Below are positions 17,250-17,579 of a stretch of 17,579 nucleotides of DNA, in pieces. The position numbers were made by a program, and so were the translations under genes. Within the stretch, counting starts at the first letter, position 1; the number at the start of each line of letters is the position of its first letter. A model generated the notes under the pieces. That model was not told the DNA's origin. It was given only the letters and a program-made list of their open reading frames with translations, and made no database searches. This DNA comes from a virus (lineage: Duplodnaviria; Heunggongvirae; Uroviricota; Caudoviricetes), in IMG/VR virus record IMGVR_UViG_2545824714_000011, positions 1 to 17,579 of that record; one strand, 5' to 3'.

Positions 17250-17438
17250 CAGGCAGAATTGCCGGAGTAACAAAAAAGCGATAGATTACGTGCGGGTGCC
17301 TTTCGGCTGATGGTCGGAGGGAATACCCGAAGGCCGGATGTGGAAAGGCCCCGGAAAACATTTCTGTTTAACCGAGGCCCTAACCCGTCAACCTAGCAAG
17401 TGATAGGTTAGCGCCTCTCCAACAAAGGAGCAAGCGCT

Positions 17439-17579
17439 ATGTCGCAAAAATCGCTTACGGCCATCACGTTCTGCGTGACGGTAATCCTCATCATCTGGAT
17501 GCTGCACGGTTCGCTGTGTGAAATACGGATGAGCTTCTGGGGAGCGGAGTTTGCGGCGTTCTTACAGTGTAAGCAGTAA
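17439..17579 (+). CDS. Hok/Gef/PndA-family type I toxin-like small membrane protein
   Basis: 46-aa ORF below the track cut-off: MSQKSLTAITFCVTVILIIWMLHGSLCEIRMSFWGAEFAAFLQCKQ. An N-terminal transmembrane helix is followed by SLCEIR and EFAAFL, closely matching Hok and PndA as recalled (e.g. PndA ...FTWMIRDSLCELHIK...ELAAFLACK). AAGGAG lies 8 nt upstream. Stop codon is the last three bases of the window. Confidence 0.65.
   Translation: MSQKSLTAITFCVTVILIIWMLHGSLCEIRMSFWGAEFAAFLQCKQ

Follow-up and report, generated by a model that had tools for sequence, protein, structure and literature searches.

In the model of the hok/mok/sok (parB) system of R1, the toxin mRNA contains the elements tac, fbi, ucb, the mok Shine-Dalgarno (SD) sequence (GAGG) and dcb, is activated by 3' processing and is controlled by the cis-antisense RNA Sok; GAGG lies near position 105, the mok start codon at 116-118 and the hok start codon at 174-176. 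According to this textbook mechanism, hok depends on mok being translated and Sok acts by blocking mok; R1 can do without neither the mok start codon nor translation that reaches the hok SD. A phage-borne module, hokW-mokW-sokW of the Stx2 phages 933W and Sp5, encodes HokW of 51 amino acids (aa) and an in-frame 70-aa MokW starting 57 nucleotides (nt) upstream; sokW acts with RNase III and Hfq, and on induction the module speeds up lysis and doubles the release of Sp5 phage (Takada et al., 2021; PMC8621323). In hokB-mokB-sokB of Escherichia coli K-12, mokB is a 55-codon frame overlapping hokB. A Hok-family gene of K-12 without mok, hokD (relF), was reportedly described by Pedersen and Gerdes in 1999; it also has no sok and no fold-back elements, and lies within the relBE operon. 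The locus analyzed here differs from hokD in keeping all of the RNA elements. It occupies positions 17250-17579 of a 17,579-nt stretch of Caudoviricetes DNA (IMG/VR record IMGVR_UViG_2545824714_000011; the whole stretch is referred to below as the window) and encodes a 46-aa Hok-type toxin. We consider, with a probability of about 0.6, that this cassette is a complete hok/sok-type type I toxin-antitoxin system devoid of mok, in which an RNA relay frees the hok SD; that it is a functional hok/sok-type cassette carried by a phage seems very probable. Relative to R1, counterparts of tac, fbi, ucb, GAGG and dcb are present, whereas mok is absent and the hok SD pairs directly with dcb.

The toxin gene is the last one of the window:

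17439-17579, plus strand: hok coding sequence, 46 aa, ending exactly at the end of the window.

The translation, MSQKSLTAITFCVTVILIIWMLHGSLCEIRMSFWGAEFAAFLQCKQ, contains C12-x-T14, L26-C27-E28 (within SLCEIR) and EFAAFL, the hallmarks by which the initial annotation had recognized a Hok-family toxin, and the gene has, as was also proposed there, a strong SD of its own (AGGAG, 17426-17430), separated from the ATG by 8 nt. The family assignment is borne out by matches far above chance to Pfam HOK_GEF (PF01848; 30.1 bits against a gathering score of 22, E 3.7e-7, with peptide residues 7-44 on profile positions 5-42 of 42) and to PHROG 251 (82.8 bits, E 2.5e-23). A minor correction concerns the former label "Hok/PndA-like": the nearest NCBIfam model is HokA and not a PndA model. 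The protein is divergent from R1 Hok and misses the NCBIfam cut-offs, scoring 23.6 against 73 for NF007279 (Hok family toxin), on which R1 Hok reaches 126.4, and 35.8 against 89 for NF007290 (HokA), and for this reason carries the generic RefSeq name "Hok/Gef family protein". The ratio of nonsynonymous to synonymous substitution rates (dN/dS) is 0.11-0.39 against nine relatives (61-78% identical), and the open reading frame (ORF) is therefore a constrained coding sequence under purifying selection. G24, C27 and E28 are invariant in 19 relatives and L26 is nearly so (at least 90%).

The gene itself is already known, being annotated in RefSeq, in PHROGs and in the Hok catalogue of Escalera-Maurer et al. 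(bioRxiv 10.1101/2025.08.07.668861), where the identical peptide is sequence 1628 of cluster 72, a group of 46-aa proteins of the form MSQKSL...AEFAAFLQCKQ. The conserved positions of the catalogue logo, C16, T18, L30, C31 and E32, are the counterparts of C12, T14, L26, C27 and E28 here. Two members of the cluster were cloned in that study: 72_1621, one residue away (V15A), is among the peptides toxic on overexpression, and neither it nor 72_1589, of the Stx-phage type, is among the 3 of 45 peptides found to be non-toxic. The same work reports that hok is enriched in prophages; it deals with coding sequences only, states that Mok, Sok and the mRNA ends were left unanalyzed, and does not describe the mok-less architecture or the ogr-side position of cluster 72. 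None of the PADLOC defence-system models matched.

The leader departs from the known loci at the site of mok initiation. In hokB, hokC and hokW, GAGG is located at -69 relative to the hok start and the mok ATG at -58 or -57, i.e., 8-9 nt after GAGG; here GAGG is located at -65, followed by:

17387-17404, plus strand: region homologous to the mok initiation site, lacking a start codon; 17392-17404 pairs with the 3' untranslated region (3'UTR) in the full-length mRNA.

The closest leader found at the mok site is that of hokB (...GAGGCCAACGAATGAACCTAGCAA..., against ...GAGGCCCTAACCCGTCAACCTAGCAA... at this locus; aligned leaders, GAATGAACCTAGCAA for hokB and CCGTCAACCTAGCAA here), and the best-aligned counterpart of the mokB ATG is GTC at 17387. 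A single canonical start codon, GTG at 17400, with a stop after 3 codons, is found downstream of GAGG (17374-17377) and ahead of the hok ATG. Among 70 distinct cluster-72 loci, CGAG[GA]C is kept in every one, and an ATG, GTG or TTG 3-12 nt after GAGG occurs in none. In 42 of them each frame meets a stop in the 50 nt upstream of the hok ATG, which means that no leader frame, whatever its start, can reach hok in these loci. The absence of a mok reading frame from the whole subfamily is thereby strongly supported at the level of sequence. The initial annotation had likewise seen no mok-like frame, both alternative frames being regarded as stopped; the first part stands, for this locus and for the subfamily, but the second needs correcting for frame +2. 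Stops are present at 17381 (frame +2), at 17394 and 17409 (hok frame) and at 17401 and 17404 (frame +1), and frame +2 is open from 17384 to a TGA at 17519, across the hok start, without a start codon.

The 3-codon GTG frame (17400-17411) was considered as a coupling device and rejected, as the GTG is replaced in many members (by GTA, GAG, TTA or GTC) and has no SD. The ATGs at 17310 and 17338 were likewise rejected as mok starts, being not conserved outside E. coli types and opening frames that, in the window, end before the SD hairpin described below. In the K-12 annotation, sokE and hokE are present without a mokE; in the hokE leader (L129, 534-789) GAGG is replaced by GGGG, and an in-frame ATG occurs at -36. 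Within the hok family, the placement of mok may therefore be more variable than the R1 model suggests.

A literature search, in which the older subscription papers on hok were not covered, returned no account of mok-less hok loci retaining the RNA elements. A whole common subfamily without a mok frame, with every RNA element conserved with covariation, appears to be undescribed. It offers a natural test of whether a hok system can dispense with translational coupling and of the role left to the conserved "mok SD" once no frame stands behind it, and should be of moderate interest to those working on type I toxin-antitoxin systems.

The leader was earlier suggested to hold a fold-back structure, and elements of the hok type were found in it:

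17294-17308, plus strand: tac, GGGUGCCUUUCGGCU, the 5' end of the mRNA; pairs with fbi beyond the window or with ucb.
17344-17352, plus strand: ucb, AAAGGCCCC; pairs with tac (open form) or with the GAGGC region (closed form).
17347-17379, plus strand: Sok-target hairpin (-13.2 kcal/mol), which includes the former mok SD, GAGGC (17374-17378).

Pairs of the closed and open structures were counted across 35 aligned cluster members of E. coli, E. albertii, Salmonella, Citrobacter and Klebsiella, filtered for redundancy so that no two reached 96% identity, and covariation supports the following helices:

tac/fbi (17294-17308 with the far 3' end): 15 pairs, 95% of cells paired, 5 pairs changed on both sides.
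Leader 17392-17404 with the 3'UTR: 85% of cells paired, 7 pairs changed on both sides.
3'UTR hairpin: 99% of cells paired, 5 pairs changed on both sides.
tac/ucb: 96% of cells paired, 1 pair changed on both sides (column 10-51: UA 21, CG 13).

The tac/fbi helix spans about 350 nt, is seen in both minimum-energy and consensus folds, and has compensatory columns of UA 20/CG 14, CG 21/GC 14 and GC 19/AU 14; with the partners slid by 1-3 columns as a control, pairing drops to 36-50% for tac/fbi and to 36-58% over the helices counted. Column 10 of tac covaries with both of its partners, fbi (UA 20, CG 14) and ucb (UA 21, CG 13). The GAGGC/GCCUC pairing is invariant save for one compensated change, in a Salmonella-type locus (L111), where it forms part of a coupled triple change: GAGGC to GAGAC, C to U in ucb, and GCCUC to GUCUC in dcb. 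As read from the alignment, column 10 and the L111 changes show the "coupled covariation" known from the hok family as the mark of an RNA that switches between two structures. A full-length mRNA locked by the tac/fbi and leader/3'UTR pairings is strongly supported. The RNAalifold consensus of the full-length alignment is closed (tac/fbi, ucb/GAGGC, leader/3'UTR and the SD hairpin), that of the trimmed alignment open (tac/ucb and GAGGC/dcb, only a 3-bp stem remaining at the SD).

The mRNA would be transcribed from a promoter read from the sequence next to ogr:

17259-17287, plus strand: candidate hok promoter, -35 TTGCCG (17259-17264), 17-nt spacer, -10 TAGATT (17282-17287).

A TAGAnT box is kept in the cluster loci inspected, at the same distance of 6-7 nt from GGGTGCC, and a box is found at the equivalent place in hokW (TAGAAT), hokC (TATAAT), hokB (TAGGAT) and hokE (TAAGAT). 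We infer a 5' end at 17294, because position 1 of the Rfam model RF01794 aligns there and the TAGAnT box lies 6-7 nt upstream. This model matches 17294-17449 on the plus strand end to end (model positions 1-157) with 47.3 bits (E 2e-9), compared with 118.3 bits for K-12 hokC and 113.5 bits for 933W hokW, whose leader is thus found by the same model. The initial annotation had proposed an Rfam search with hok mRNA and Sok models. A hok-leader model does match the sense strand, but below its gathering score of 59, and RF01794, despite its name "sok", is not an antisense model: it covers the hok leader in the sense direction, from the first nucleotides of the mRNA to the hok AUG (tested on L014 502-654, minus strand, and L016 28611-28785, minus strand), so that its hits are hok leaders, with Sok on the opposite strand. 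The leader between ogr and hok was also called GC-rich; its length of 189 base pairs (bp) is correct, but its GC content of 53.4%, against 51.4% for the window, is unremarkable.

As stated in the initial annotation, the end of the window cuts off the 3' regulatory elements; these were recovered from 11 loci which are identical to 17250-17579 and extend further, the next 130 nt being essentially shared (0-3 differences). Past the window the identical loci contain a G+C-rich hairpin, then AUCGGUUGCUAGGG, GGCCGAUAAGGCACCC and an intrinsic terminator (L001, 6228-6255, and a T run). An mRNA of about 407 nt, from near 17294 to the terminator about 120 nt beyond the window, is strongly supported.

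An antisense RNA, considered possible in the initial annotation, finds support in a candidate sok promoter at the homologous position and in the predicted fold of its transcript:

17405-17433, minus strand: candidate sok promoter, -35 TTGCTC (17433-17428), 17-nt spacer, -10 TAACCT (17410-17405).
17340-17398, minus strand: putative Sok-like antisense RNA, about 55 nt long, its ends estimated to within a few nt.

In 933W, sokW has the boxes TTGCCT and TAACCT with a 17-nt spacer; the place and the -10 are the same as here, and the annotated sokW 5' end lies 6-7 nt past the -10. Mutation of the sokW -10 element abolished antitoxin activity (PMC8621323). Variants within the cluster are TTGCCT or TTTACT for the -35 and TATCCT for the -10; the conservation of these boxes is inseparable from the RNA-structure and SD constraints on the opposite strand. 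The predicted RNA would form a single-stranded 5' tail of 13-17 nt and one long hairpin (-24 kcal/mol, z score -3.2), the same layout as annotated SokC and SokW. From these features we infer a Sok-like gene on the minus strand. A consensus sigma-70 scan (threshold, 9 of 12 positions) found no site in the locus, and both candidate promoters, falling below this threshold, are placed by positional homology only.

The hok ribosome-binding site itself is closed by a hairpin:

17409-17439, plus strand: hairpin shutting the hok ribosome-binding site; dcb/anti-SD, GCGCCUCUCC (17411-17420), pairs with AGGAG (17426-17430) and the bases before AUG.

This structure (-13.4 to -14.2 kcal/mol, z score -3.1) has 94% of cells paired in the alignment. 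A homologous SD hairpin is present in hokB, hokC and hokW (-14 to -16 kcal/mol, with one more inner stem), where a ribosome translating mok would open it. At the present locus, 3' trimming would allow tac to re-pair with ucb, and the freed GAGGC, formerly the mok SD, could then capture the anti-SD (dcb, GCCUC) and release the strong SD of hok, from which hok would be translated directly, without mok. The GAGGC/GCCUC hairpin that this step calls for (17374-17417; -19.0 kcal/mol) and the SD hairpin are mutually exclusive, and the minimum-energy structure of the trimmed RNA of the window locus is the open form. A short, unstable Sok-like RNA (from about 17398 down to 17340) would cover GAGGC, whereupon the anti-SD would re-close the hok SD, and the Sok/mRNA duplex would probably be cut by RNase III; when the stretch covered by Sok was blocked in folding, the SD hairpin re-formed. 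Once the supply of Sok was lost, through loss of the prophage, host shut-off or induction as for hokW-sokW, Hok would kill or permeabilize the cell.

Within this scheme, the step in which the old mok SD pulls the anti-SD off the hok ribosome-binding site ranks first among the possibilities, yet only tentatively. Similarly tentative is the more general idea that cluster-72 loci are naturally mok-independent, with GAGGC acting as an RNA decoy that no longer recruits ribosomes, Sok sequestering this decoy, and an RNA-structural relay replacing translational coupling. Several observations weigh against the relay. The changes in the SD hairpin are one-sided (G-U) only, with no compensatory pairs. 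For the trimmed RNA, the open form (-135.2 kcal/mol) is almost equal in energy to the closed one (-135.0 kcal/mol), 0.2 apart. When the 35 loci were folded as single-sequence ensembles (full-length, trimmed or Sok-blocked), SD accessibility did not shift consistently (by more than 0.1 in only 4 of 35), and for this reason a direct switch is unsupported at the ensemble level, the consensus fold being in its favour. The sok promoter matches the sigma-70 consensus at 3 of 6 positions in each hexamer and was missed by the scan, and the 3' elements lie outside the window, being taken from loci identical over 17250-17579. Finally, R1 needs mok translation up to the hok SD despite homologous RNA elements; because mok translation is mandatory there, direct translation of hok at this locus is an assumption.

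A standby site, or Sok acting mainly via RNase III decay, fits the data about as well as the decoy. In the former scheme, which would resemble tisB/istR-1, the SD hairpin stays closed in all states, ribosomes load on 17380-17408, exposed only after 3' trimming, and enter when the hairpin breathes, while Sok blocks this stretch and triggers decay by RNase III. The ensembles, in which the SD remains paired in the full-length, trimmed and Sok-bound states, are in line with it; moreover, in the full-length RNA the 3'UTR ties up this stretch, with strong covariation, though there is no start codon to hide, and the stretch would be covered by the Sok 5' tail. The trimmed consensus fold, however, puts most of 17380-17408 into the GAGGC/GCCUC hairpin, the sequestering could equally serve just to bar Sok from the full-length mRNA, and direct support for standby binding is lacking. 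Loading at a standby site is judged unlikely, if worth keeping in mind.

A regulatory relic, in which Hok is practically never made for want of mok and the locus hitch-hikes on the phage, is improbable. Such a fate could be expected from the R1 system, where loss of the mok start abolishes Hok production, from an SD buried in a hairpin of -13 to -14 kcal/mol, and from an element that resembles a deleted, defective prophage. It is contradicted by the purifying selection on the ORF and by the compensatory changes maintained in three long-range helices. Further arguments against decay are the broad spread over hosts, phages, plasmids and tandem arrays, with a match in about a third of complete E. 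coli genomes, and the toxicity of the peptide when expressed (as the catalogue variant).

Still less probable is a hidden leader frame in place of mok, opened by a non-canonical start in frame +2 (17384-17518) or by the ATG at 17310 or 17338. Frame +2 is open across the hok start here and in 27 of 70 loci, and in 12 of 57 close variants an ATG at -130 or -103 opens a frame of 61-87 codons overlapping hok, some E. coli variants having acquired such long frames through small indels. Nevertheless, 42 of the 70 loci are stopped in all three frames at most 50 nt before the hok ATG, and no ATG, GTG or TTG follows GAGG in any locus. Members from Salmonella, Klebsiella and Citrobacter lack the upstream ATGs, which fall within the tac/ucb domain, and the upstream ORFs of the window stop at 17396 and 17403, before the SD hairpin.

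Whether the cassette belongs to the phage or to the bacterial chromosome was left undecided in the initial annotation; phage records, the position between ogr and int, and the homology shared by differently integrated prophages settle it as cargo. The gene preceding hok is:

16989-17249: ogr (Ogr/Delta zinc finger, 86 aa; Pfam 52.4 bits), whose end is separated from the hok ATG by 189 bp.

The region from about 3743 to 17579 shares 95-96% nucleotide sequence identity with the late region of P88-like phages (Xuanwuvirus, Peduoviridae), and the ogr-hok stretch is 96-98% identical to the phage records Chuche, P88, Shae_phiSM, PhiR44_2, P884B11 and 500465-2. In P88, hok is found at 34928-35068 of a circular 35.8-kb genome (record length, 35814), between ogr and int, and the gene order in Chuche is ogr, hok, com, methyltransferase, int. 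The ogr-hok pair occurs at several chromosomal sites (the pgsA/tRNA side and the flk/fabB side in E. coli, the ihfA/pheT side in Salmonella), and differently integrated prophages cease to be homologous about 70-120 nt past the hok stop, where the fbi element or the terminator of the mRNA lies. Because ogr-hok is constant across insertion sites and the homology ends only past hok, the cassette is phage cargo, followed by a variable cargo slot, and not flanking DNA; it is carried by P88-like P2-family temperate phages, just after ogr. That it is host chromosome next to attR, outside the phage, as its place as last gene of the window beyond ogr, itself the last gene of the conserved P2 order at that end, might suggest, can be practically dismissed: hok lies inside genome records of packaged phages with more phage DNA and int after it, the flanks vary by insertion site while ogr and hok stay paired, and many IMG/VR provirus contigs end 3 nt past this ORF, which points to trimming at a gene boundary and accounts for the stop of the window at the hok stop codon.

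In related prophages, variable genes are found between gpD and ogr, encoding an unknown 340-aa protein, a PIN_12 protein and a ParA/AAA_31-like ATPase (L002 4336-5358, L007 4394-5464, L010 4231-5289); com and an N6/N4 methyltransferase gene lie downstream of hok in L007 and L012. With variable genes both before ogr and after hok, two cargo slots therefore flank the constant ogr-hok pair, and a toxin cassette is added to the known contents of the ogr end of P2-like prophages, which bears other variable cargo too.

As to the benefit for the phage, several candidate roles can be named by analogy. Post-segregational killing is known for R1 hok/sok, and exclusion of phage T4 by the same system was reportedly observed by Pecota and Wood in 1996. 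Faster lysis with a larger phage release, as for hokW-sokW, would be a further candidate. The introduction of the hokW study cites a phage-defence role of hok/sok (PMC8621323).

The subfamily is widespread. The assembly collection contains the exact protein in 25,559 indexed blocks, and the 330-nt locus was matched in 1,750 of 5,426 complete E. coli genomes (about a third). The cassette occurs in E. coli, Shigella, Salmonella, E. albertii, Citrobacter and Klebsiella, and is carried by P2-like phages, lambdoid phages, plasmids and tandem arrays. At prophage ends it is located after ogr (P2-like prophages of E. coli and Salmonella), after lom (Stx phages) or after tail-fibre genes (one Salmonella prophage), and it also adjoins a plasmid relaxase gene. 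The diversity of loci was drawn from eight exact-protein look-ups; a scan of viral contigs gave 80 near-identical copies and no added diversity, and a DNA search of plasmids found close relatives only and no R1-type loci. A scan of genome contigs yielded only 7 loci, three of them in assemblies labeled as non-enterobacterial. These three (L017, L018 and L021) are E. coli-type ogr-hok or Stx-type hok loci in assemblies labeled Planococcaceae, Vagococcus and Xanthomonas pisi; the Planococcaceae contig (4.2 kb) and the Xanthomonas contig (857 bp) are short, and all three are probably contaminating contigs.

Salmonella chromosomes contain tandem arrays of 2-3 cassettes with 46-aa hok genes, about 500-700 bp apart (L120 2501-3987, L121 2501-3643, L112 2501-3131). 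Phage 933W has, besides hokW/mokW/sokW, a second, unannotated hok of the 46-aa type between lom and ST933Wp67 (L016 15512-15800; about 45.5-45.8 kb of the record), hokW thus being a locus separate from the 933W cluster-72 copy. Since the leader does not reach the Rfam threshold, nor the protein those of the NCBIfam Hok models, loci of this kind are named generically or, as in 933W, not at all, and toxin-antitoxin surveys relying on these models could undercount them.

The remainder of the window has a composite structure. Positions 1-3750, an early-region block with a tyrosine integrase gene (Int_N and Phage_integrase; 878-1999, minus strand), match other E. coli prophages at 99.9%, and the block joins P88-like baseplate and tail genes at about 3743-3750, a junction present in none of the complete E. 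coli genomes of the collection. Replication, capsid and lysis genes are missing between the early block and the P88-like tail genes, and the element therefore looks like a deleted, defective prophage. The tape-measure gene (10597-13438, minus strand) appears to be split into two overlapping ORFs of 607 and 351 aa, as opposed to a single 935-aa gene in related prophages, which suggests a frameshift. Between the tail-fibre assembly gene and gpU lies a gene for a 187-aa protein resembling hexapeptide-repeat acetyltransferases (9362-9925, minus strand), which is probably cargo.

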